Below are positions 1,340 to 31,182 of a stretch of DNA of 57,063 nt, in pieces. Position 1 is the first letter of the stretch, and each line of letters starts with the position of its first letter. The stretch is from an uncultured virus (IMG/VR IMGVR_UViG_3300042863_002514) (taxonomy: Duplodnaviria; Heunggongvirae; Uroviricota; Caudoviricetes). A model generated the notes under the pieces. That model had not been told where the DNA came from. It worked only from the letters and a program-made list of their open reading frames with translations, and did no database searches. Position numbers and translations under genes: made by a program. The stretch covers positions 62,001 through 119,063 of IMG/VR virus record IMGVR_UViG_3300042863_002514; one strand, written 5' to 3'.

Positions 1340-1831
1340 TTATTTGTTCAAAATGCTCAAGGCTTTTGCTAAGCTGGCTTTGTCAAAACCATGATCAGGA
1401 TGTGTTCTCACATAATTGGTTTTCAAATACAAGATGGCTGGGTTGTCATCTATTGCTACCCAAGTGTCAATCTCAGGATGATCAGCAATCCAGTTCAAAA
1501 CTTCTTGACCCCGATTTGACCCTTGCTGTCTAGGAGTCATGTAATTGCCTTCACTGGGATCATCGTATTCAAATATACAGGAAGGATCAATACCATTGCG
1601 CATGAGACAATTGCTGACTTCACTAACACTGTGTCCCTCAGCCCAACTTGTGCTGAGAACTATTTCAGCATGAGTTGCCTTGAGCAAGGCATTCAAATTT
1701 TTCACACAACTGGGATTGAATACAACTTTAGAGAGATAGTTATTGGTAGTCAGTCCCTGCTCTGCTTGCTCTCTAGCATCAGGATCAGGTAATAACACGC
1801 CGTCAAAGTCTAAAAACACTATCTTGGTCAT
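1340..1831 (-). CDS. HAD-family phosphatase (RNA-repair-associated HAD type)
   Basis: FLDFDGVL, LSTSW, RGQEV..W, VAIDD motifs. Confidence 0.8.
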   Translation of the reverse strand: MTKIVFLDFDGVLLPDPDAREQAEQGLTTNNYLSKVVFNPSCVKNLNALLKATHAEIVLSTSWAEGHSVSEVSNCLMRNGIDPSCIFEYDDPSEGNYMTPRQQGSNRGQEVLNWIADHPEIDTWVAIDDNPAILYLKTNYVRTHPDHGFDKASLAKALSILNK

Positions 1832-8920: not shown

Positions 8921-8994
8921 TGGTGGCACCAGTGAGATTTGAACTCACACCACTGGATTTAGAGTCCAGCTGACTACCTTTGTCTTATGGGGCC
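8921..8994 (-). tRNA. tRNA with CUA anticodon (amber suppressor)
   Basis: Cloverleaf GGCCCCA...CTGGA CT CTA AA TCCAG...GTGAG TTCAAAT CTCAC TGGTGCC A CCA; anticodon at 8960-8962. Confidence 0.85.
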
Positions 8995-10850: not shown

Positions 10851-11459
10851 TCAACTATTTTCTGTTTGCATGCTTTGAAGAACCAGCCGCTTGACCACCT
10901 TCCTCAAGCCTGGATTGACCTTGAGTGCCTCCGGTACAATCTTATGACGAATGTGATTCCGCATATACTTCAAATCTTTATTGCTCTCATCCTCAACCCA
11001 AGGCACCTCATGTCTCACACACCAACTTTCAAACACACTCTTGGGTGTGGTGAGAAAGGGTCGCACCACATTGTTCCGCCACATGGGAATGGTGTGTGTT
11101 TTCCCATGCAAACAGTTGAAGAGATAGGTCTCCACACAATCATCTAGATGATGCCCTGTTACCACAACTCCTTCGATGCTGTGCAAAAACTCATATCGAC
11201 TGTTGCGCCAATGTTCTTCCATTGAAACCCCTTTGGGGCACGCATCAACCAAAAAATCCACTCGCATGGGAATGGAGTTCTCATAACAGTATGTGCTGAG
11301 AAAGCTCAACGCTTTTGAACTTGTTTCGGTGTCATGATGAAAAAAACACACAGTGACGTTGTGCCGGAGGCGCAAAAAATCCAGCACCGCCATGCTGTCT
11401 ACACCACCGCTACACGCTACCCCCAGTTCTCGAGGCAACTTGGCCAGCAACTTGAACAC
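10851..11459 (-). CDS. tilS: tRNA(Ile)-lysidine synthetase (short form)
   Basis: SGGVDSM, R..RY.F, TGHHLDD..ET, RPFL, DESN...Y.RN.IR. Confidence 0.93.
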   Translation of the reverse strand: MFKLLAKLPRELGVACSGGVDSMAVLDFLRLRHNVTVCFFHHDTETSSKALSFLSTYCYENSIPMRVDFLVDACPKGVSMEEHWRNSRYEFLHSIEGVVVTGHHLDDCVETYLFNCLHGKTHTIPMWRNNVVRPFLTTPKSVFESWCVRHEVPWVEDESNKDLKYMRNHIRHKIVPEALKVNPGLRKVVKRLVLQSMQTENS

Positions 11460-12260
11460 CTAAAACTCCATGTTTTCAATGGCCATAATCCATTTCTGCA
11501 CATCAATCTCATAAAACCCTGCACAATTGCAGCAGTTGTATTCAATAATCTTGTTGTATCCATCATCAGCATCGTCAGTAAGAGCCAGGTCAATCACATA
11601 GGCTCGAGCTGGTCCCCACTTTCCAGCCATGCGTTGAGCATATTCCCACATTGTGGGTGGCACTTCTGCTGTTGGACAAACGCGGCTTCCAATCTTGTAG
11701 GTGCTGCCTGTGATGACTTCTCCATCTACTACAAAAAATCGGGCCTCCCGATATATCTGTTTGAGTTCACTCACCACAACTGGAGTGTTCTCATCAAGAG
11801 TAGTATAGGTCTCACGCAATCCAATCACCTTACGTTGCCAAGATAGGAACGCCTGCCAGTCTATTATCTGCCCGTTGAAGCTCTTGGTGTCTTCTGTGGG
11901 TCGGATAAAAAAGCGATCCCACAAATGGGGCACATCACCAAACTTGCACACCACTGCCTCCTCATTGAGGAGATGACCTTTCATGTGTTCACGCCACACT
12001 TGAAAGTCATGGTTCTCATTGTGAAAGCTGCCTGGGGTCCAACCACGATCAGTAGCCAGTGTAGCCAGGCTGATGCTCCCACTCACCATCACGTGTCCTT
12101 GAGGGTCTACCAGGGGAGTAATTCGCTCTTCCCATGGCAACCCACTTGTGAACGGAATCACCTTGACAATGTCATGAGGGATTTGAAGACGAACTAGAGC
12201 TTCCAGAAGGCTGCTATAGTTGCGCTCATTGAGCAGGTTGTCCTGAATAATCCAATGCAT
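11460..12260 (-). CDS. ATP-grasp protein (R2K/DUF4343-like)
   Basis: FFIRP..D.K.F.G, EARFFVV.G, VIDLA, KIIEYN. Confidence 0.75.
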   Translation of the reverse strand: MHWIIQDNLLNERNYSSLLEALVRLQIPHDIVKVIPFTSGLPWEERITPLVDPQGHVMVSGSISLATLATDRGWTPGSFHNENHDFQVWREHMKGHLLNEEAVVCKFGDVPHLWDRFFIRPTEDTKSFNGQIIDWQAFLSWQRKVIGLRETYTTLDENTPVVVSELKQIYREARFFVVDGEVITGSTYKIGSRVCPTAEVPPTMWEYAQRMAGKWGPARAYVIDLALTDDADDGYNKIIEYNCCNCAGFYEIDVQKWIMAIENMEF

Positions 12261-15114: not shown

Positions 15115-15906
15115 CTAGCCCACAGCCCTCTCTAGGGCCCGTATCCCTTCTAACCCACCGGCAGAGATTCCTAAATCACTTGTACGTGAAGTTTCAAACT
15201 CATGTGGATTGATGCGAATCAAGTTAGTGGTGCGTTCTTGACCAAAGATCCTAATGCTGGGGATTCCAGTTCCTGCACCAATTTCAATACCCAAAACCTC
15301 CATCTTTGATGCTGCCCAATTCCGAAAATTTTCTTGACCTTGATCAATTTGTGTCCAAACAATCCCTGGGTCGTTGAACATCAGCACATTTGGTCGAGCA
15401 TTCTTGTTGCAGTAGGGGCATTTGGGGATTTCCTGTTCTGAGGTGAGCAGGGAAGAAAATTTTGGCATAGAGGGTAAGTTTCGGCAACAGGGTTGAGTGC
15501 ACTGAATTTTTCGCAGATTGCCATGTATCTCATAGAGATATTGTGGGTCATAACCAGCTTTCAAAAAATGGCCATCAACATTACTGGTTACTACAAAACT
15601 TTTTTTGTTGTGTGATTGTAGGAGATCCAGGAGGATCTTGTAACCCTCATGTGGGACAGTGTCTTGATATTTAATCATGCGGCCAACGTAAAAGTTCCAA
15701 GCCTCAAGGGGATTGGTGTCAAAACTTTTGGCTGTAGCTTTCTTGAGAAAGTTTTCTTTGGCCTCGGTCCACAAGCCTGTGGCGCCTCGAAAATCTGGCA
15801 AGCCACTGTCTACACTCATGCCGGCACCAGCCAAGATCACAATTCCTTCGGCTTGATGCCATAATTCTTTTATGCGTTGGGTTTGATCGGGGGTGAGTGG
15901 TTGCAT
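15115..15906 (-). CDS. Sir2/CobB-family NAD-dependent deacylase
   Basis: GAGMSVDSGLPDFRG, TSNVDGH, EIHG, CxxC/CPxC, RPNVLMF. Confidence 0.93.
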   Translation of the reverse strand: MQPLTPDQTQRIKELWHQAEGIVILAGAGMSVDSGLPDFRGATGLWTEAKENFLKKATAKSFDTNPLEAWNFYVGRMIKYQDTVPHEGYKILLDLLQSHNKKSFVVTSNVDGHFLKAGYDPQYLYEIHGNLRKIQCTQPCCRNLPSMPKFSSLLTSEQEIPKCPYCNKNARPNVLMFNDPGIVWTQIDQGQENFRNWAASKMEVLGIEIGAGTGIPSIRIFGQERTTNLIRINPHEFETSRTSDLGISAGGLEGIRALERAVG

Positions 15907-15938
15907 TAGGTTGGGTTCTTTTATAAGAGTGTAGTAAG

Positions 15939-16062
15939 TGGCGGACCCGGAGGGATTCGAACCCCCATCGAAGAGCTTAGGAGCGGTCCCCAAGGATTCG
16001 AACCTTGAATGCTACCTGCGGGACCGGAAGGCTCTTGCCTTATCCAATTAGACCACGGATCC
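15939..16062 (-). tRNA. tRNA-Arg (UCU or CCU) interrupted by a 47-nt tRNA-like insert in the anticodon loop
   Basis: GGATCCG/CGGGTCC G CCA acceptor, GGATA D-loop, AGAGC/GCTCT anticodon stem. Removing ~15982-16028 gives a 77-nt cloverleaf. Confidence 0.85.
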
Positions 16063-16192
16063 TTAACTTGTAGTTTTACTATATTGATCTTTTCTGCAAC
16101 GTCAACTACGAATGTTTGTAGTAATTTTAAGTTTAACACAATCAAAAACAAACACGATAGTATGCGTCTCAAAAACTGTTAGTAAGTTTAAA

Positions 16193-16278
16193 TGGAGCGG
16201 CGTATCGGATTCGAACCGATGGAACCTATTCGCCTCAAGTTTGGAAGACTTGTGCTCTAACCCCTGAGCTAACGCCGC
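16193..16278 (-). tRNA. tRNA-Gly (UCC) with long variable region
   Basis: CAAGT CT TCC AA ACTTG; U73, CCA; 15-nt variable region. Confidence 0.85.
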
Positions 16279-16313
16279 TTACACATCTATATTACACTAT
16301 CATATCAACACTG

Positions 16314-17003
16314 TCAAGCTTTCTTGGAAACCGCAGCAAGAAAATACCCATTGTGCCAATCACTGTTTTCACTATGATTGTTGGGATGACTGCCATCTGG
16401 TGTGGTCATAATTGTGATATAGCTGACCTCAGCCCCCAATTCTCTCAAGGCTCGATGTGTTCCTTCTCTAGCAGGCGGCCAGTTCCAATCATCTACCACA
16501 AGAAGATAATCAGGATCTAGAGCGGGTTGGGCCATCATCAAGCCATCATATTGATCTTGTGCAGTGTGTGGACCATCAAACAAATACATGTTGAACTTGC
16601 CTAGAGTGCTATAGTCAATTGAACGAAAATCCTTTTCCAACACTGTGAGTTGGGTTCCCAGCTGGATTGTCTTGTCTACATTGGCAAAAAATTCATCCCT
16701 GGGGCCATCAAACTGACTCCAATTGTCAATGGCTGTGGCTTGCACCCTATTGTTGCTCAACACGCTGCAAAGTGTGCTGCCTTTCCAACTGCCTATTTCC
16801 AAGTAGCGAGCTTCCTCCAAGCTGCTGGAAATTTTGTTCATGAGATAGCGATACTTTTTTCCACTCATGCCTGGGATTTGGAGATAATATTCCTTAGCTG
16901 TGAGCTCCCGGGAGTAGACTTCATTGAACCAGGTGAACAGCAGATTCTTGAAAGGATGTTTATGATTTGGCTTGTGATGTTGTTGTATATCTAGGTATGT
17001 CAT
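16314..17003 (-). CDS. class I SAM-dependent methyltransferase
   Basis: YLEIGSWKGST, IDNW, FDGPH, VDDWNW. Confidence 0.85.
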   Translation of the reverse strand: MTYLDIQQHHKPNHKHPFKNLLFTWFNEVYSRELTAKEYYLQIPGMSGKKYRYLMNKISSSLEEARYLEIGSWKGSTLCSVLSNNRVQATAIDNWSQFDGPRDEFFANVDKTIQLGTQLTVLEKDFRSIDYSTLGKFNMYLFDGPHTAQDQYDGLMMAQPALDPDYLLVVDDWNWPPAREGTHRALRELGAEVSYITIMTTPDGSHPNNHSENSDWHNGYFLAAVSKKA

Positions 17004-17829: not shown

Positions 17830-17972
17830 TGCCTCAGCCCATTGAAGATTTTGAGAGCTGGTTCAATGTTTTTGGCACCTACAATGTTGATTCAGAGAGT
17901 GGCAAACGTGCTTTGTTTGCCTGCCAAAAAGAGTTGGAAGACTCTGGCGTAGGACTGCATGCAAGATGGTAA
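17829..17972 (+). pseudogene. internally deleted LRR-array member (47 aa)
   Basis: MPQPIEDFESWFNVFGTYNVDSES fused directly to GKRALFACQKELEDSGVGLHARW. Confidence 0.75.
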
Positions 17973-18622
17973 GTGATGTGGAATATGAACAAACCAAAAC
18001 CATCTTGAGCCAGAACTTCAAGATAGAGAGCAATGCCTTATATCCAGCTGGTTGGATGTTTGATCAAGATGGTAAGATTGTTGTGGCTGGTGACTTACAC
18101 CTAACGCGGCCTCAATCTCAGTTACCTTTGCGTTTCAGTAAGGTGCATGGTACCTTCACCTGCAACAACAAGAATCTAAGAACCTTGGAAGGATGCCCAT
18201 TTGAGATTGAAGGAGATTTCGACGCCAGCTTCAACTTGCTATCAAAGTTAACCAGTTTTCCGCATTGGGTCAGTGGCAGTATCCTTCTCAATAGCAACAA
18301 GTTGACTTCTCTACAAGGTTTGCCGGACACAGTATCTGACAATCTGGAGATTCAAGACAACCCACTGGAGTCACTTGACCACTTGCCCAAGAGCATTGCT
18401 TGGGTAACATTGACGTATAGTCCCACAATACCACTGTTGAGAACATTAGGAGCCTTGCATGTGGACCTTATTGTGCCTATGCAATATAAGCGAGGAAACG
18501 AAGGAAAATTCCAGCAGTTACATAAAATTTTGAACAGTTATGCAGGCAAAGGCAAACGTGCTTTGTTTGACTGCCAAAAAGAATTGGAAGATGCGGGTTT
18601 TGAGGAAAATGCACGATGGTAA
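17966..18622 (+). CDS. variable LRR protein, array A member 1
   Basis: 21-aa N.L..L.G.P..V.G.F.C repeats; C-terminal cap GKRALFDCQKELEDAGFEENARW. Confidence 0.85.
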   Translation: MVSDVEYEQTKTILSQNFKIESNALYPAGWMFDQDGKIVVAGDLHLTRPQSQLPLRFSKVHGTFTCNNKNLRTLEGCPFEIEGDFDASFNLLSKLTSFPHWVSGSILLNSNKLTSLQGLPDTVSDNLEIQDNPLESLDHLPKSIAWVTLTYSPTIPLLRTLGALHVDLIVPMQYKRGNEGKFQQLHKILNSYAGKGKRALFDCQKELEDAGFEENARW

Positions 18623-19437
18623 ACCAGGAATTCCCACAAGACAAAACAACTGTTCGTCAGTTACTGAATGAATACTTTGGTTGGGAAAGTACCCTTTTCA
18701 CTATACATGATACAGGTGTTGTAGATGCTCATGGATCAATTTTGTTGAGCAAAGAGACCTCTCGATTGCCTGTGAGATTTGGAGTGGTGGAAGGCAATTT
18801 TCTCTGTCACAGGAACAAGTTGGAAACACTTGAAGGCTGTCCTCACACTGTCTTGGACACATTTGATTGCAGTGAAAACCAGTTGATCAGCTTGGTTGGT
18901 GGCCCAAAAACAGTAAAAGGACAATATTCTTGCCAGAATAATAAACTCTCAGATTTGTTGGGAAGTCCACGAGACTTTACACAAGAATACATTGCATACA
19001 ACAACAATTTAGTGAGTTTGCGAGGTGCTCCCCTGCAAATAGGTGGTATGTTTGATGTCAGTAAAAATCTCTTGACTGATCTTCAAGACGCACCACAGAC
19101 CGTGGAATATTTTTGGGCAACCAACAACAAGCTCACAACACTCAAAGGTGCCTCTTTGAATATTTCCAAGCAGTTTATTTTTGATCACAATCCCTTGGAA
19201 AATCTTGAGGGGTTAGGCTCCCAAACTCCTGATTTGATTGAAGTCAGTTACAAATCCGATTTGCCCTTGTTACGGCTTTTGGTAGCCCAGAAGGTCAATT
19301 TTTGGCCTGTGCTGTGGGGCAAGTATATTCAAGTGGAAACCATCTTGAAAAAATACGCAGGCCAGGGCAAACGAGCCCTGTTTGACTGTCAAAAAGAATT
19401 GGAAGACGCAGGATTTGAAAGGAACGCCAAATGGTAG
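18616..19437 (+). CDS. variable LRR protein, array A member 2
   Basis: same repeat and cap; ATGGTAA overlap. Confidence 0.85.
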   Translation: MVNQEFPQDKTTVRQLLNEYFGWESTLFTIHDTGVVDAHGSILLSKETSRLPVRFGVVEGNFLCHRNKLETLEGCPHTVLDTFDCSENQLISLVGGPKTVKGQYSCQNNKLSDLLGSPRDFTQEYIAYNNNLVSLRGAPLQIGGMFDVSKNLLTDLQDAPQTVEYFWATNNKLTTLKGASLNISKQFIFDHNPLENLEGLGSQTPDLIEVSYKSDLPLLRLLVAQKVNFWPVLWGKYIQVETILKKYAGQGKRALFDCQKELEDAGFERNAKW

Positions 19438-20030
19438 ACAAAAGGGAAATTTTGGAACTGTTGGCAGAGTATTTTTTCTTTGAGCCAAATGACGCTGTGA
19501 AATTTGACATAGGTCCTGAGGGCTTGGTTAATGTGCTTGAGCTGACTCCTGGTCGCGGCCATCTCCGCACTATTAAGGACAAACCCTTCCCTGGAGGTCA
19601 GTTGCCTGTGAGATTTGGCTTGTTCAAAGCCAGCTTAAAATTGGACCGGAATCAAATCGTGGACTTGGTTGGTTGTCCCCCTGTAATCCAAGGCAATTTT
19701 GTTGCACTTGGCAATCAATTGAAAAATTTCAAGGGTGGGCCCAAAGAAGTCACAGGTAGGTTTTGGCTTGGGATGCAGAAAAACCTATTAGAGAGTTTGG
19801 ATGGTTTTCCTGATAGGGTGGGTGACTATGCTAAACTGCCTTACCATGACAAGTTGCCGCTGCTGCGCACGTTAGCTTGCCAAGATGGTGTAATATTGAG
19901 CTCATCATCCTTTAACACTAATCCCATTGAAGAAATAATTGAAAAATACAAAGGACAGGGCAAGCGTGCCCTGTTTGAATGTCAAAAAGATCTAGAGGAT
20001 GCTGGATTTGAAGGAAATGCAAGATGGTAG
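19431..20030 (+). CDS. variable LRR protein, array A member 3
   Basis: same repeat and cap. Confidence 0.85.
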   Translation: MVDKREILELLAEYFFFEPNDAVKFDIGPEGLVNVLELTPGRGHLRTIKDKPFPGGQLPVRFGLFKASLKLDRNQIVDLVGCPPVIQGNFVALGNQLKNFKGGPKEVTGRFWLGMQKNLLESLDGFPDRVGDYAKLPYHDKLPLLRTLACQDGVILSSSSFNTNPIEEIIEKYKGQGKRALFECQKDLEDAGFEGNARW

Positions 20031-20629
20031 ACAAACAAGAAGTTCAGCACATGTTGAACACTTATTTTCGTAATGGTGAGGCAGACAACCGGGTGCGCTT
20101 TCAAATTGAAGATAGTGGTATAGTAAATGTGCAGGAGATCACACCAGGATATGGTGTGCTCTTGGCCATACAAGGACCGTTTCCCAATGGAAAACTGCCT
20201 GTAAAATTTGGCGTTTGCCATGCCAGTTTGATTTTAGACAGATGTGGACTCTCCAGTCTTGAAGGTTGTCCGCAGATTGTGGGAGGCAGATTCACTGCCA
20301 ACAAAAATCCTTTGAAAGACATGACAGGTGGGCCCCTTGAGGTTTCAGGTCGTGTGGGATTTAGACAAGAGGTTCCAGTGTTGAGTCTTGCTGGGTTTCC
20401 CCAACGAGTAGGCCAACACTTGAGCATAAATTATCACAATAAATTGCCCTTGCTTCGAGCTTTGAACTGCCAACAGGGCCTAATGCTGTATGCCCACAAT
20501 GTTATGCAAAGCAAACTTCTAACAATTGAAGGAATATTTTACAAATACGCAGGACAAGGCAAACGTGCCCTGTTTGATTGCCAAAAAGAACTGGAAGATG
20601 CGGGCTTTGAAGGAAATGCAAGATGGTAG
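20024..20629 (+). CDS. variable LRR protein, array A member 4
   Basis: same repeat and cap; closest to member 3. Confidence 0.85.
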   Translation: MVDKQEVQHMLNTYFRNGEADNRVRFQIEDSGIVNVQEITPGYGVLLAIQGPFPNGKLPVKFGVCHASLILDRCGLSSLEGCPQIVGGRFTANKNPLKDMTGGPLEVSGRVGFRQEVPVLSLAGFPQRVGQHLSINYHNKLPLLRALNCQQGLMLYAHNVMQSKLLTIEGIFYKYAGQGKRALFDCQKELEDAGFEGNARW

Positions 20630-21282
20630 ACGTCAAACAGCATGTGTTGAACACGCTAACTCAACATTTCATGGTAGATGGGGACCCCATTGTTGATCCA
20701 GCTGGCAAAGTCAGTGTCATGGGAGACGTTGTGTTATACAACAAATTTCACAGTTCTTTTCAAGAACTACCGGTGAAATTTTCTCACATTGAAGGCAGTA
20801 TGATGCTCAGCATCAACCAACTCAAGACACTAGAGGGTTGTCCAGAAACTGTTGGTAAGAATTTTGAGTGTGACAATAATGAACTCAAAAGTTTGAAGTT
20901 TGGACCCAAAACAATAGGCACGACACAAACACCCACATTTGGCGGCAGTTATAATTGCAGTAAAAATCAATTGAAGGATTTGGAAGGGGCACCTAGAGAA
21001 ATCCCCAGTGTGTTCAATTGTTCAGCCAATCCTCTAGAGAGCTTGCAGGGCTTTCCTCAAAAAATTGGAGATAGTTTGTATATCACTTATGATACTCAGC
21101 TGCCTTTGTTGCGCACATTGGTGGCACCAGAGATTATTTTTTGGCCGTATCAAAGCGAGGGCAGCGATGCCTGGAAGGTGTTATACATTTTGGAAAAATA
21201 TTTGGGGCAAGGAAAACGTGTTATGTTTGATTGTCAAAAAGAATTGGAAGATGCCGGATTTGAGGACAACGCCAGATGGTAA
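20623..21282 (+). CDS. variable LRR protein, array A member 5
   Basis: same repeat and cap. Confidence 0.85.
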   Translation: MVDVKQHVLNTLTQHFMVDGDPIVDPAGKVSVMGDVVLYNKFHSSFQELPVKFSHIEGSMMLSINQLKTLEGCPETVGKNFECDNNELKSLKFGPKTIGTTQTPTFGGSYNCSKNQLKDLEGAPREIPSVFNCSANPLESLQGFPQKIGDSLYITYDTQLPLLRTLVAPEIIFWPYQSEGSDAWKVLYILEKYLGQGKRVMFDCQKELEDAGFEDNARW

Positions 21283-21914
21283 ACAAACGAGAAATCTTGC
21301 AGTTATTGAAAGACCATTTCAGCTTTGACTACAACAGTGCAAAAGTTTCATCAGATGGACTGGTAACAGTAAATGGCGATATTCAATTGTTGAATCTCCA
21401 CTATACACGTTTTGAAAAACTGCCAGTTGCCTTCAAAGCTGTAACTGAAAATCTATCGTTAGATGAGAACGCACTAGTAACCTTGGAAGGCTGTCCCCCT
21501 GAAGTGGGCGTGAGTTTTGACTGTTCACGTAACATGCTCAAAAGCCTTAGTGGGGGGCCAGAAATTGTAGGTTGGAACTACTACTGTGACCATAATCAAC
21601 TTGTTGATTTGAAGGGGGCACCTGTCCAGATACCCAATAATTTCAATTGCATTGGTAATCCGTTGAAAAGCTTGGATGGATTTCCGTTGAAAGTGGAAAA
21701 TGCAGCTTGGTTACCGTATCTACCACATTTGCCTCTCTTACGTACCTTGGCAGCAAGGCATATATTTTTAGAGCCTGCTGACGACACTCACACTGTGGAG
21801 AAGGGAAAAGTGCAGACAATTTTGAACAAATATGCTGGCCAAGGCAAACGTGCCATGTTTGATTGCCAAAAAGATTTGGAAGACGCTGGATTTGAGGATC
21901 ATGCAAAATGGTAG
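21276..21914 (+). CDS. variable LRR protein, array A member 6
   Basis: same repeat and cap. Confidence 0.85.
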   Translation: MVNKREILQLLKDHFSFDYNSAKVSSDGLVTVNGDIQLLNLHYTRFEKLPVAFKAVTENLSLDENALVTLEGCPPEVGVSFDCSRNMLKSLSGGPEIVGWNYYCDHNQLVDLKGAPVQIPNNFNCIGNPLKSLDGFPLKVENAAWLPYLPHLPLLRTLAARHIFLEPADDTHTVEKGKVQTILNKYAGQGKRAMFDCQKDLEDAGFEDHAKW

Positions 21915-22525
21915 ACGTTGATAACATCAAAAAAACTTTTGATGATTATTTTCAATGTAATGAAAGCATTGTAATCAATTCTGATGGAACAATAAGCACA
22001 AAAGGTTACGTAACGCTTATGTTGCATGTTAAGAAGTTGCCAGTTGGCTTTTATGAAGTGGAAGGATTTGATGTGGGGGGCATGGGGCTCACAAGCCTTC
22101 AAGGATCTCCCAAATATGTCTACAATGAATTTCGTTGTACTGAGAACAATTTACAAACTCTTGAAGGCGGTCCTGATGCTGTTGGCGAACACTACTTATG
22201 TGGGTTCAACCAGCTCAAGAGCTTGCAAGGTGCACCCAAAAAAGTTCTTGGATCTTTGAGTTGTGTGGGCAATCCACTTGAAAGTCTTGAAGGCATACCG
22301 CAAGAAGGTTTAGGGCGACTAGTGTTACAATATTCGCCCACTTTGCCTTTGCTACGTGCATTGGTTGCCAAAAAAATTGTATTCATGCATAGGGTTGATG
22401 AATCGGAGCCACCCCAGAAGGTTCAAGAAATCATGAACAAATATGCAGGTCAAGGCAAAGCTGCCATGTTTGACTGCCAAAAAGATTTGGAAGACTCTGG
22501 ATTTGAAGGAAATGCACGATGGTAG
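21908..22525 (+). CDS. variable LRR protein, array A member 7
   Basis: same repeat and cap. Confidence 0.85.
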   Translation: MVDVDNIKKTFDDYFQCNESIVINSDGTISTKGYVTLMLHVKKLPVGFYEVEGFDVGGMGLTSLQGSPKYVYNEFRCTENNLQTLEGGPDAVGEHYLCGFNQLKSLQGAPKKVLGSLSCVGNPLESLEGIPQEGLGRLVLQYSPTLPLLRALVAKKIVFMHRVDESEPPQKVQEIMNKYAGQGKAAMFDCQKDLEDSGFEGNARW

Positions 22526-23271
22526 ATCTAGCCGGGATCAAAAAAACTTTTGACAAATATTACTCTCACACAGGTAAACTCTCTGTTGATCCCAACACAG
22601 GATTGATATCCTGCACAGGCAGTGTCAAGAGCAAGGAGAAATCTTACCTTGATGGTAAGCCAGGTATAAAAACCTTGCGGGTAAGGTTTGGAAAAATACG
22701 CTACGATTTTGCTGTACAGCATACCGATCTGGTGAGTCTAGAAGGCGCACCCTCTTGGGTAGGTAGAGATTTCAAGTGTGGCCACAACCAACTCACCAGT
22801 TTGTTGGGTTCGCCTCAACATGTGGGCGGAGATTTCAAATGCGATAATAACAACATAGAAAGCCTTGAACACTGTCCCAAATCAGTTGGTGCCAATTTCT
22901 CTTGTATGACAAATCAACTCTCATCACTGGAACATGTTCCTGAGAAAGTGCATGATTTGTTTTGCATGGAAAACAAACTAGTCTCACTACACGGTGCACC
23001 AAAAACCATCACTGGCGAGTTGAGAGCATGGGGTAATCAGCTAGAGTCACTTGAAGGAATGCCTACTGAAGTAAGGGTTTTATGGATTGACTACAGCCCC
23101 ACTCTGCCGCTCTTGCGTTGTTTAAATGCTAAAAAACTGTGGTCGGGTATGGGATGGCCACACGAGGTGCGGGCTATTCTGCAAAAGTATATGGGTCAAG
23201 GCAAACGTGCCATGTTTGACTGCCAAAAAGAACTGGAAGATGCTGGATTTGAAGGGAATGCAAGATGGTAG
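22519..23271 (+). CDS. variable LRR protein, array A member 8
   Basis: same repeat and cap. Confidence 0.85.
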   Translation: MVDLAGIKKTFDKYYSHTGKLSVDPNTGLISCTGSVKSKEKSYLDGKPGIKTLRVRFGKIRYDFAVQHTDLVSLEGAPSWVGRDFKCGHNQLTSLLGSPQHVGGDFKCDNNNIESLEHCPKSVGANFSCMTNQLSSLEHVPEKVHDLFCMENKLVSLHGAPKTITGELRAWGNQLESLEGMPTEVRVLWIDYSPTLPLLRCLNAKKLWSGMGWPHEVRAILQKYMGQGKRAMFDCQKELEDAGFEGNARW

Positions 23272-23870
23272 ACAAAAAAGAAGTAATGGCTTTGTTGAAA
23301 GCTAATTTCAAAACAACAGGCCAAGTCACAATAGATCCTGAGGGGTTGATCACTTGCCAGGGTAATGTTATACTTAAAAGACAATTACCCCAGTTCCCTG
23401 TGCGTTTCAAGAGTGTTCTTGGACACTTCCAGTGCGATTACAACCAACTAACCACACTGGACGGGGCGCCAGAGAGTGTTGGTGGAAGTTTCTTAGGCTC
23501 AAGTAACCAACTTATTTCACTTAAAGCTGCACCCAAGAATGTGGTTGGAAGTTTCGTATGCTTCAACAACCAACTGACTTCACTGGAAGGTGCTCCCAGC
23601 AGTGTTGGTGATCTTTTTAGTTGTCACCTCAACCCATTAACCTCACTCCAAGGTATGCCTTCAGAGCTCAATTACTTGGCTATACCTTACACGCCTACTC
23701 TTCCACTGCTCCGTTGTTTGGCAGCCAAAAGTATCTCGTTGCGGTCAGCAATGAATCACACGACTGTTGAAACAATCTTGAACAAATACGCAGGACAAGG
23801 CAAACGTGCCATGTTTGATTGTCAAAAAGAACTAGAAGATGCTGGATTTGAGGATAATGCAAGATGGTAA
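23265..23870 (+). CDS. variable LRR protein, array A member 9
   Basis: same repeat and cap. Confidence 0.85.
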   Translation: MVDKKEVMALLKANFKTTGQVTIDPEGLITCQGNVILKRQLPQFPVRFKSVLGHFQCDYNQLTTLDGAPESVGGSFLGSSNQLISLKAAPKNVVGSFVCFNNQLTSLEGAPSSVGDLFSCHLNPLTSLQGMPSELNYLAIPYTPTLPLLRCLAAKSISLRSAMNHTTVETILNKYAGQGKRAMFDCQKELEDAGFEDNARW

Positions 23871-26964: not shown

Positions 26965-27127
26965 TGGTGCCGGATGTCAGTTTCGAACTGACCACCTATT
27001 GATTACCATTTGGCGTACTGGCTTTAGGCCAGTGTTGCCCACAAACAACTGGTAAATTTATTCACCAGTTGGTGGCATTATCCCGCCACGGAAAAATCAA
27101 TTGCTCTACCAAATGAGCTAATCCGGC
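26965..27127 (-). tRNA. tRNA-Thr (UGU or GGU) interrupted by an 87-nt structured insert in the anticodon loop
   Basis: GCCGGAT/ATCCGGC A CCA acceptor, ATTGA/TCAAT anticodon stem. Removing ~27008-27094 gives a 76-nt cloverleaf. Confidence 0.85.
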
Positions 27128-31034: not shown

Positions 31035-31055
31035 TTATTGTCTTGACGTTAAATC

Positions 31056-31160
31056 GCCATCGCCGGATGCCACTTCCGGATTTCTTCACCAGCTAGGTGA
31101 TTGCTGCCGGCTAGTTACCATTCTCATGGTGTGTTGGGAGGCTGTTCCAACCTCGATGGC
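31056..31160 (-). ncRNA. multibranch structured RNA inside the tRNA cluster
   Basis: GCCATCG/CGATGGC closing stem enclosing four hairpins. Confidence 0.5.
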
Positions 31161-31182
31161 AATTGTTGGTTGAGAGAATAGT

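Follow-up and report, generated by a model that had tools for sequence, protein, structure and literature searches.

To our knowledge, group I self-splicing is the only route of tRNA-intron removal recognised in bacteria and their viruses. Group I introns are longer than 200 nucleotides (nt) and possess a conserved P1–P9 catalytic core, and the anticodon loops of bacterial tRNAs are their classic home. Short tRNA introns described as 'enigmatic' have been reported in the Lak megaphages, which infect Prevotella and have genomes of approximately 540 kb that use code 15; one of these introns 'itself may encode a tRNA', and the parts of the report considered here give no mechanism for their removal (Devoto et al. 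2019, PMC6784885). The 15 introns listed there range from 23 to 141 nt; phages that share an intron have it in identical form, and some relatives lack it (PMC6784885). No published explanation for short phage tRNA introns was found in literature searches. Here, we describe a tRNA-Arg(UCU) gene whose anticodon loop is interrupted by 47 nt, located in a 57,063-nt stretch of DNA from an uncultured virus (IMG/VR record IMGVR_UViG_3300042863_002514, positions 62,001 to 119,063) that is referred to below as the window. The sequence evidence suggests, with a probability that we put at roughly 55%, that the insert is a non-self-splicing tRNA intron that would be cut out under the guidance of its own tRNA-like fold, the exons being rejoined into a 77-nt tRNA-Arg(UCU).

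The locus resembles the Lak introns, as far as these are covered by the parts of the report considered here, in three respects: it is a phage tRNA anticodon-loop insert that is too short for a group I intron and unclassified by Rfam, it has a tRNA-like fold, and it is conserved where present and absent from orthologous genes of relatives. In the 93-nt Lak Tyr intron (Table S6), a hairpin and a spacer precede a 3' mini-tRNA that has the T-arm AATTGG-TTCGAAT-CCAATT and a closing stem (PMC6784885). Unlike Lak, the phage described here is T4-like, comes from lake water and uses the standard code with a coding density of 92%, and the inserts of class 1 described below are 47–62 nt long and consist of the mini-tRNA alone. 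The tail after the closing stem is approximately 2 nt in the Lak Tyr intron versus 4–5 nt here, in a comparison of one Lak intron sequence made by reading without alignment. A first, sequence-only reading of the window had proposed that the insert may represent a new class of tRNA intron, which is overstated given the short unexplained Lak introns reported in 2019 (PMC6784885).

The interrupted tRNA-Arg gene and its insert

The gene and the elements of its insert are located as follows:

15939..16062, minus strand: entire tRNA-Arg(UCU) gene with its insert, 124 nt including an encoded CCA (Rfam RF00005; ARAGORN with introns allowed)
16027..16062, minus strand: 5' exon, 36 nt, comprising the acceptor strand, D-arm, anticodon-stem 5' strand AGAGC and loop CUUC (from the intron-less ortholog L115:3117-3194)
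15980..16026, minus strand: 47-nt insert, the class-1 putative mini-tRNA intron (ARAGORN, folding, covariance model)
15939..15979, minus strand: 3' exon, 41 nt, comprising loop UAA, anticodon-stem 3' strand, variable loop, T-arm, acceptor strand, G73 and CCA (sequence and Rfam alignment)
16020..16026, minus strand: acceptor-like 5' strand CGGUCCC of the insert, pairing with 15984–15990 and identical in the relative G002
16011..16019, minus strand: D-like mini hairpin GC-AGGUA-GC with a GG loop (sequence)
15991..16007, minus strand: T-arm CAAGG-UUCGAAU-CCUUG (sequence and fold)
15984..15990, minus strand: acceptor-like 3' strand GGGACCG, directly 3' of the T-stem (fold and descriptor scan)
15980..15983, minus strand: single-stranded 4-nt tail CUCC, mini-tRNA positions 73–76 (sequence; tail length constant in 8/8 inserts)

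The gene was matched end to end by RF00005 with 43.8 bits (cut-off, 29) over model positions 1–71, with an insertion of approximately 50 nt inside the anticodon loop, and ARAGORN with introns allowed reported a 77-nt tRNA with a 47-nt intron. Under default settings, ARAGORN misses both interrupted genes of the window. The tRNA body, read from the sequence, has A20 and G73, which we take to be arginine identity elements and which suit an Arg identity. The sequence-only reading had described the locus as a tRNA-Arg with a mini-tRNA-like insert in its anticodon loop, and every element that it named was found in the sequence. Its insert length of 47 nt and the placement in the loop also stood, while its coordinates (approximately 15982–16028) gave way to 15980–16026; a register shifted by one nt (15981–16027) is equally possible, and the anticodon is UCU in both registers.

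An assembly artefact, which the same reading had named as one way in which it could fail, is contradicted by the occurrence of the insert, unchanged, in three independent IMG/VR contigs and in the contigs of 4/4 lake-water DNA runs; no insert-less joint at the Arg locus was seen in the contigs of these four runs. The window lies within a 119-kb record that matches one end of a 309,756-nt IMG/VR contig (G001) with 99.993% identity over 118,186 bases. A second contig (G003) lengthens G001 by approximately 91 kb, giving a phage genome of at least approximately 400 kb. The phage is T4-like, with genes for the gp20 portal, gp23, gp25, terminase, sheath and a UvsX-type RecA, and its bilin reductase, heme oxygenase, PhoH and speD-type genes suggest a cyanobacterial host. 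When the phage GenBank collection was searched with the tRNA-Arg gene, only T-arm-sized matches were obtained, in 13 records, none of them covering 80% of the gene.

Read from 5' to 3', the insert is ordered as C-GGUCCC, GC-AGGUA-GC, AUU, CAAGG-UUCGAAU-CCUUG, GGGACC-G and CUCC, and an anticodon arm is absent. Its 7-bp closing stem and 5-bp T-stem abut and form 12 stacked pairs without a gap, as in tRNA, and the T-loop UUCGAAU fits the pattern UUCRANN; the insert thus has the acceptor-like stem coaxial with a T-arm that is expected of a tRNA-like substrate for RNase P and 3'-end processing. The mini hairpin has only 2 bp and is weak by itself. Folded alone, the insert adopts the described build with a minimum free energy (MFE) of −18.5 kcal/mol (z, −2.3; 6/200 shuffles as good). 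This energy is moderately unusual and not beyond chance, and it is the recurrence of the build, in eight inserts of four phage lineages, that carries the case. A descriptor scan of 310 kb of G001 found a 7-bp stem directly abutting a T-arm at the mini-tRNA spacing only in the Arg insert; with 4-bp stems, the scan gave many chance matches inside ordinary tRNAs and genes, and only the 7-bp match without a gap is meaningful. Pairing of the tail GCUC with the anticodon-stem strand GAGC was considered and dropped, as it is not conserved in G002.

Related inserts and the position of their ends

Relatives of the phage were found through the neighbouring SIR2 gene and a saccharopine-dehydrogenase gene (protein identity, 68–77%). 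With ARAGORN, introns allowed, inserts were called in 2/20 tRNAs of this phage (G001), 3/7 of G002, 3/5 of L115, 1/2 of L114 and 0/1 of L116, and in 0/66 tRNAs of four more distant T4-like phages. Class 1 comprises eight inserts of 47–62 nt that are built like the Arg insert of the window, and seven of them lie in three related contigs:

tRNA-Arg: window and G002
tRNA-Leu(UAA): G002 and L115
tRNA-Leu(CAA): G002 and L115
CAU-tRNA: L115 and L114

The sequence-only reading had allowed that the insert might prove unique and unconserved, and it had looked to related phages for similar inserts with compensatory changes. The seven further inserts of the same build, together with orthologs that lack them, contradict the former, and compensatory changes were found in the exons, as described below.

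Independent MFE folds gave a closing stem running from nt 1 or 2 to 4–5 nt before the 3' end in 8/8 class-1 inserts and an adjoining hairpin with a 7-nt loop in 6/8. The exceptions are the G002 Arg insert, which has the T-arm in its sequence but another inner MFE fold, and the L115 Leu(CAA) insert, which has a 5-nt loop. By sequence, the T-loop pattern UUCRANN is present in seven of the eight inserts, as is a GG in the loop of the small hairpin. The closing stems are wholly different in sequence (GGUCCC, GGGGAU, GAGGAU, GGAC, CGCC and AGGC), each with its complement, and the stem of the small hairpin is GC/GC in the window, AU/AU in G002 and 3 bp long in both CAU inserts. Twelve clean stack layers were counted in both Arg inserts and in the L115 CAU insert; the L114 CAU insert also reaches 12, but only with one T-stem pair mismatched and an additional A left unpaired. 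Support for the stems was argued by hand, as a MAFFT alignment of the eight inserts is out of register at the 3' strands and yields no covariation statistic.

The ends of the inserts were located with the help of genes that lack them. The intron-less G001 ortholog of tRNA-Leu(UAA), with the loop CUUAAAA, uniquely fixes the site as CUUA/51 nt/AAA in both G002 and L115 (slashes marking the junctions). The intron-less tRNA-Arg of L115 has the loop CUUCUAA and is 86% identical to the G002 Arg exons, indicating that the mature anticodon is UCU. The mature loop CUUCUAA predicted by the sequence-only reading is thereby fixed, and the CCU register that it had offered as an alternative, which is also that of ARAGORN, breaks down in the relative G002, as it would place a C at position 33 (C33). 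In 8/8 inserts, the unpaired nt between the anticodon stem and the closing stem of the insert total 13 (5 + 8 six times and 4 + 9 twice), a sum that is accounted for by seven loop nt, one nt before the closing stem and five after it. The excised piece accordingly consists of one nt, the stem and five nt past the stem in all eight cases, and its ends match tRNA positions 1 and 76. This rule recasts the tRNAs called Arg(ccg) and Pro(cgg) by ARAGORN as CUC/../AUAA, giving CUCAUAA, the loop of the relatives' CAU tRNAs. The site in the outer tRNA varies (35/36 or 34/35), and the site relative to the insert is constant. N1 is paired with N72 in three of the class-1 inserts and mismatched in five.

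A 5' cut at the first base of the nested stem had been predicted from the Arg insert, and this position fits 8/8 family members. A 3' cut by RNase Z after position 73 was rejected: the product would be CCU here and, in G002, a loop that is not canonical, and the intron-less ortholog contradicts such a cut. Fifteen of the 20 window tRNA calls end in CCA, and 3' processing must therefore respect position 76.

The size of the inserts bears on whether the RNA could splice or cleave itself. Their location is that of the bacterial group I tRNA introns, including those of cyanobacterial tRNA-Leu(UAA), and the interrupted genes of the relatives include tRNA-Leu(UAA) as well. However, inserts of 47–62 nt are far below the size of a group I core, and no Rfam intron or ribozyme was matched at E up to 1 in 15800–16400 or at gathering score in approximately 310 kb. 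We find self-splicing or self-cleavage hardly credible, in line with the earlier judgement that the 47-nt Arg insert is too short for a group I intron.

A covariance model (R1) was built from three sequences, the window Arg insert and two relatives. R1 found the L114 CAU insert exactly at its predicted ends, weakly (E, 0.7); it recovered only the Arg/CAU group and no Leu insert. Exact patterns derived from the Arg and Leu(UAA) inserts matched only contigs already known (4/4 and 2/2 stretches). No new close relatives were obtained by neighbour-gene searches with the 2OG oxygenase and GT17 genes, and the relatives obtained with the portal gene are fragments without the tRNA region. A metagenome search with the saccharopine-dehydrogenase gene returned 80 loci, mostly bacterial-looking (55–62% identity), with eight tRNA calls, three of which were flagged as containing an intron; one of these three, L126, is a relative of the second class of inserts described below. 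L193, with a 103-nt insert, was dropped as GC-rich, gene-like sequence. L159 was likewise dropped as a family member: its contig looks bacterial, and its tRNA-Thr carries a 253-nt intron (L159:19708-20052, minus strand) that may be a group I intron. A genome search with RF00005 overlooked three interrupted tRNAs in L115's own record, and its zero counts are uninformative on inserts.

Two kinds of unusual tRNA were observed alongside these genes. The tRNA-Gly(UCC) of the window (16193–16278, minus strand) has 13 additional nt in its variable region, an unusual feature in a Gly tRNA; GGCG from the acceptor 5' strand recurs in this added piece, the 3' part of which is a weak R1 match (E, 0.5). 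This gene was matched over approximately 93–95 nt, at 83–85% identity, by tRNA-Gly genes from Serratia phage BF and from jumbo phages of Erwinia and Yersinia. In relatives, the CAU tRNAs at L026:10034-10121 and L127:1731-1816 combine a long variable arm with a D-arm of class-II-like form; the tRNA-Met of the window is ordinary.

A second insert class and selection on the interrupted tRNAs

The other interrupted gene of the window carries an insert of a different build, here called class 2:

26965..27127, minus strand: interrupted tRNA-Thr(UGU) (ARAGORN with introns allowed)
27007..27093, minus strand: 87-nt class-2 insert of tRNA-Thr(UGU) (ARAGORN and homologs)

The class-2 insert starts with UUCCGUG and contains two hairpins and a 3' mini-helix around the GGCCUAAAGCC hairpin, followed by a 5-nt tail. 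This arrangement of hairpins and a 3' mini-helix is nearer than class 1 to the build of the Lak Tyr intron, as that intron is given in the part of its source considered here. Homologs of the Thr insert are present in L126 (261–345) and L217/L231, with five compensatory pairs in the central hairpin. The L126 and L217/L231 inserts lie two nt further along the loop (36/37 versus 34/35), and removal of the insert in all three leads to the loop UUUGUAA, Thr-UGU. A pattern search for class 2 returned 21 stretches, of which three belong to this phage, two (L217 and L231) are real and 16 lack a tRNA and look like chance. Judged from these sequences, the rule of five nt after the stem and the insert-defined boundaries hold in class 2 too.

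Selection on the outer tRNAs was assessed in tRNA-Leu(UAA). The exons of the interrupted G002 gene are only 71% identical to the intron-less G001 gene, and among the 21 cloverleaf pairs, six double compensatory changes, three single changes and no broken pair were counted by hand. No further gene for Arg-UCU or Thr-UGU was called in the phage (ARAGORN, introns allowed), and AGA makes up 21% of its Arg codons (joint top) and ACA 37% of its Thr codons (top).

These observations bear on whether the insert is removed at all. If it were never removed, the non-decoding RNA with two elbows could act as a decoy or sponge for anticodon nucleases or processing enzymes, or as a stored 'masked' tRNA. Both the decoy and the masked tRNA had been offered by the sequence-only reading, and as specific roles they are neither favoured nor disfavoured by the data. 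The failure of the Pfam scans of the phage to find a splicing enzyme is in keeping with retention of the insert, a tRNA mimic would also keep its cloverleaf, and conservation is higher in the insert than in the exons for two pairs of genes. Nevertheless, in 8/8 class-1 and 3/3 class-2 genes the loop left after removal of the insert is a canonical one of 7 nt, with U33 and A37 A38, the insert-less orthologs are ordinary tRNAs with the same anticodon, and the phage lacks any other gene for the two anticodons although AGA and ACA are top codons. Permanent retention of the insert is therefore considered unlikely.

Insert and exon identities were compared for three pairs of genes:

Arg, window and G002: insert identity 79%, exon identity 61%
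Leu(UAA), G002 and L115: insert identity 94%, exon identity 63%
Leu(CAA), G002 and L115: insert identity 48%, exon identity 66%

Between tRNA groups, insert identity is 48–59%. The two Leu(UAA) bodies of G002 and L115 differ, one having and the other lacking a long variable arm, and one Leu(CAA) site is occupied by unrelated inserts of 62 and 51 nt. By these comparisons, the insert behaves like an intron, being conserved, present or absent among orthologs and carried by host tRNAs under selection, and the inserts move with an intron-like mobility.

The higher conservation of the Arg and Leu(UAA) inserts than of their exons would also suit a different role, in which the product needed by the phage would be the mini-tRNA, as a small tRNA-like RNA, with the outer tRNA mainly its carrier; re-sealing of the exons may coexist with such a role. 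The released piece would have exact tRNA-like ends, a T-loop and a GG loop. We regard this as decidedly unlikely, because the inserts of different tRNAs share the fold and little sequence, related phages lack inserts in the same genes, and the descriptor scan found no free-standing copy of a 7-bp stem with a T-arm in 310 kb.

Finally, the inserts might be selfish DNA or recombination debris by which accessory tRNA genes were knocked out, the genes now decaying as pseudogenes. Their presence among relatives is patchy, the same insert occurs in dissimilar Leu(UAA) bodies, and the phage encodes many HNH and NUMOD3 homing-type endonucleases, all of which would fit. The unbroken cloverleaf and the six compensatory doubles of the interrupted tRNA-Leu(UAA), the geometry that is constant in 8/8 inserts, the folds kept across very different insert sequences and the fact that no target-site duplication was seen at the eight inserts make it very unlikely.

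Candidate enzymes and a proposed route of removal

Pfam scans were performed on 473 open reading frames (ORFs) over approximately 400 kb of the phage. An Rnl1-type ligase (L020:1457-2671) matched PF09511 (E value, 6.7e-26) and the T4_Rnl1_C domain PF20819 (E value, 1.3e-7). It aligns to T4 Rnl1 (2C5U) at 4e-26, with EKLDGS opposite TKEDGS, and the KxDG lysine is presumably its adenylylation site. A second ligase (PF09414), an RlaP protein and a protein with kinase and metallophosphoesterase domains (L020:13181-14410) that matches both corresponding domains of C. thermocellum Pnkp were also found. The window itself contains a HAD_SAK_2 gene (1343–1831, minus strand), which encodes the HAD domain of 'Swiss Army Knife' RNA-repair proteins (E value, 1.9e-27). 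The RNA ligase that the sequence-only reading had looked for elsewhere in the genome is thus present, in the form of the Rnl1 homolog and the PF09414 ligase, along with the kinase-phosphatase.

In the route that we propose for the cut-and-rejoin intron, the 47-nt insert would be cut out by a protein or by RNase P and the tRNA re-sealed by RNA ligation, with the cut sites set by the insert's own fold and not by the host tRNA. We infer both splicing itself and the identity of the nucleases and the ligase. The 5' cut would fall just before the first nt of the mini acceptor stem, between window positions 16027 and 16026, and the 3' cut four nt beyond the mini acceptor stem, between 15980 and 15979, so that the released piece would have the ends of a full-length tRNA, positions 1–76. 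Host RNase P would be the most economical candidate for the 5' cut, and a bacterial RNase P is expected to cleave precisely at this site. The 3' cut could be made by an endonuclease that acts after position 76, either RNase E or an RNase Z of the kind known from organisms whose tRNA genes encode CCA, where the enzyme cleaves behind the CCA. RNase P and such a 3' nuclease would leave a 3'-OH and a 5'-phosphate, which the phage Rnl1-type ligase could seal in the anticodon loop without prior healing; should the cuts yield a cyclic phosphate and a 5'-OH, the phage kinase-phosphatase would heal the ends first. The predicted products are a 77-nt tRNA with the junction CUUC/UAA (...AGAGCCUUC/UAAGCUCU...) and a free 47-mer. 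The narrower proposal, a third tRNA-splicing route in which the intron mimics tRNA positions 1–76, is cut by RNase P and a position-76 endonuclease and has its exons joined by the phage Rnl1-type ligase, is tentative, and the odds are judged to be against it in exactly this form.

The healing and sealing enzymes of the phage would equally suit the cyclic-phosphate and 5'-OH ends of archaeal/eukaryal-type splicing, in which a bulge-helix-bulge (BHB) is cut by an EndA-like phage or host enzyme before ligation. A BHB has two 3-nt bulges, in which the cuts are made, on either side of a 4-bp helix. This is the only established protein-dependent route of tRNA splicing, with EndA or TSEN as endonuclease and RtcB or Trl1 as ligase. 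As with BHB introns, the inserts are short, lie in or near the anticodon loop and would be removed by an endonuclease and a ligase; archaeal and eukaryal protein-spliced tRNA introns also occur at non-canonical positions. Unlike BHB introns, they show no BHB motif and have cut sites that follow their own tRNA-like fold. By inspection, the 3' end of the insert offers nothing complementary to the 5' loop nt (CUUC, CUUA, CUCA and CUC), and a 4-bp central helix is missing from 8/8 pre-tRNAs. EndA (PF01974) was found in 0/5 phage records, with four archaeal controls positive and the host genome outside the search, and RtcB in 0/5 phage records. Removal by BHB-type splicing is thus highly improbable.

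The proposed route has partial counterparts in two known systems. In T4, a break made by the anticodon nuclease PrrC is countered by tRNA repair with Pnkp and Rnl1. The phage described here similarly has an Rnl1 with the tRNA-specific C-terminal domain for anticodon-loop breaks and possesses healing enzymes. The T4 break, however, is host-inflicted damage and not intron removal, and the kinase-phosphatase found here is of the C. thermocellum Pnkp type. The eukaryotic mascRNA (MALAT1, RF01684) is a tRNA-like RNA freed by RNase P and RNase Z. Like the insert, it forms an elbow of acceptor and T-arm, lacks an anticodon arm for decoding and lies within a longer transcript, and it is delimited by tRNA-end processing, as proposed for the insert, but its flanks are not re-ligated. 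The only RF01684 match obtained was below threshold (E, 0.16) and lay on another segment.

In favour of removal of the insert along this route, the 'tRNA within tRNA' structure, at −43.4 to −44.2 kcal/mol, comes within 1.4–2.2 kcal/mol of the whole-gene MFE of −45.6 kcal/mol. Several observations weigh against the route. The whole-gene MFE structure is not a cloverleaf (z, −0.66), and in it the two T-arms, nearly identical in sequence, are mispaired. In all four Leu inserts, the stack from the T-loop to position 1 counts 11 layers, not 12, and N1 is unpaired. Positions 74–76 are never CCA (UCC, CCC, CAG, CAG, ACA, ACA, ACU and UGA), and an RNase Z of the usual description, which cuts after position 73, would leave three extra nt. 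The 5' cut of class 2 is not beside the mini-helix, and RNase P therefore cannot be the general 5' nuclease. EndA, RtcB, the RNase P protein and RNase Z were not found in the Pfam scans, and RNase P RNA was not found by Rfam in about 310 kb of the phage, so that host enzymes, or phage proteins that escaped recognition, would have to supply the nucleases. In T4, a phage without tRNA introns, Rnl1 and a kinase-phosphatase act in tRNA repair, and their presence here is permissive, not specific. The contigs of the relatives, at 14–35 kb, are too short for co-occurrence of ligase and inserts to be assessed.

Other features of the genome are given here for completeness. A suppressor-type tRNA with the anticodon CUA, which reads TAG, is encoded at window 8921–8994 (minus strand), and one is present in G002 too; TAG is the stop of 65/301 long ORFs, and the coding density is 92% under the standard code despite this tRNA. 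A TilS-like PP-loop gene (window 10854–11459) adjoins tRNA-Met(CAU), and an R2K ATP-grasp gene lies at 11463–12260 (minus strand). Amid the tRNA genes, a match to the skipping-rope RNA RF02924 was found at window 31055–31161 (minus strand; 44.5 bits; cut-off, 36.7). Nine head-to-tail ORFs of approximately 200–270 aa without a Pfam match occupy window 17966–23867 (plus strand). Six RCC1-repeat proteins are encoded in a run at L001:4633-13414 (within record positions 1–62 kb) and large collagen-repeat proteins elsewhere in the genome; these are probably fibre or adhesion proteins.

To the short phage tRNA introns known from Lak, the locus adds a second phage lineage and a minimal form, the mini-tRNA and nothing else. 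It also adds a rule that places the two cut sites exactly, in 8/8 class-1 inserts and in part in the second class, and a concrete set of enzymes, the phage's own Rnl1 and kinase-phosphatase. If the proposed route is correct, RNase P-type processing would gain a role in intron removal, and the Rnl1-type 'repair' ligases of phages would gain a housekeeping function in splicing in large phages. The mini-tRNAs would then be mobile introns that need no excision enzyme of their own, and the annotation of phage tRNAs would have to allow for introns.

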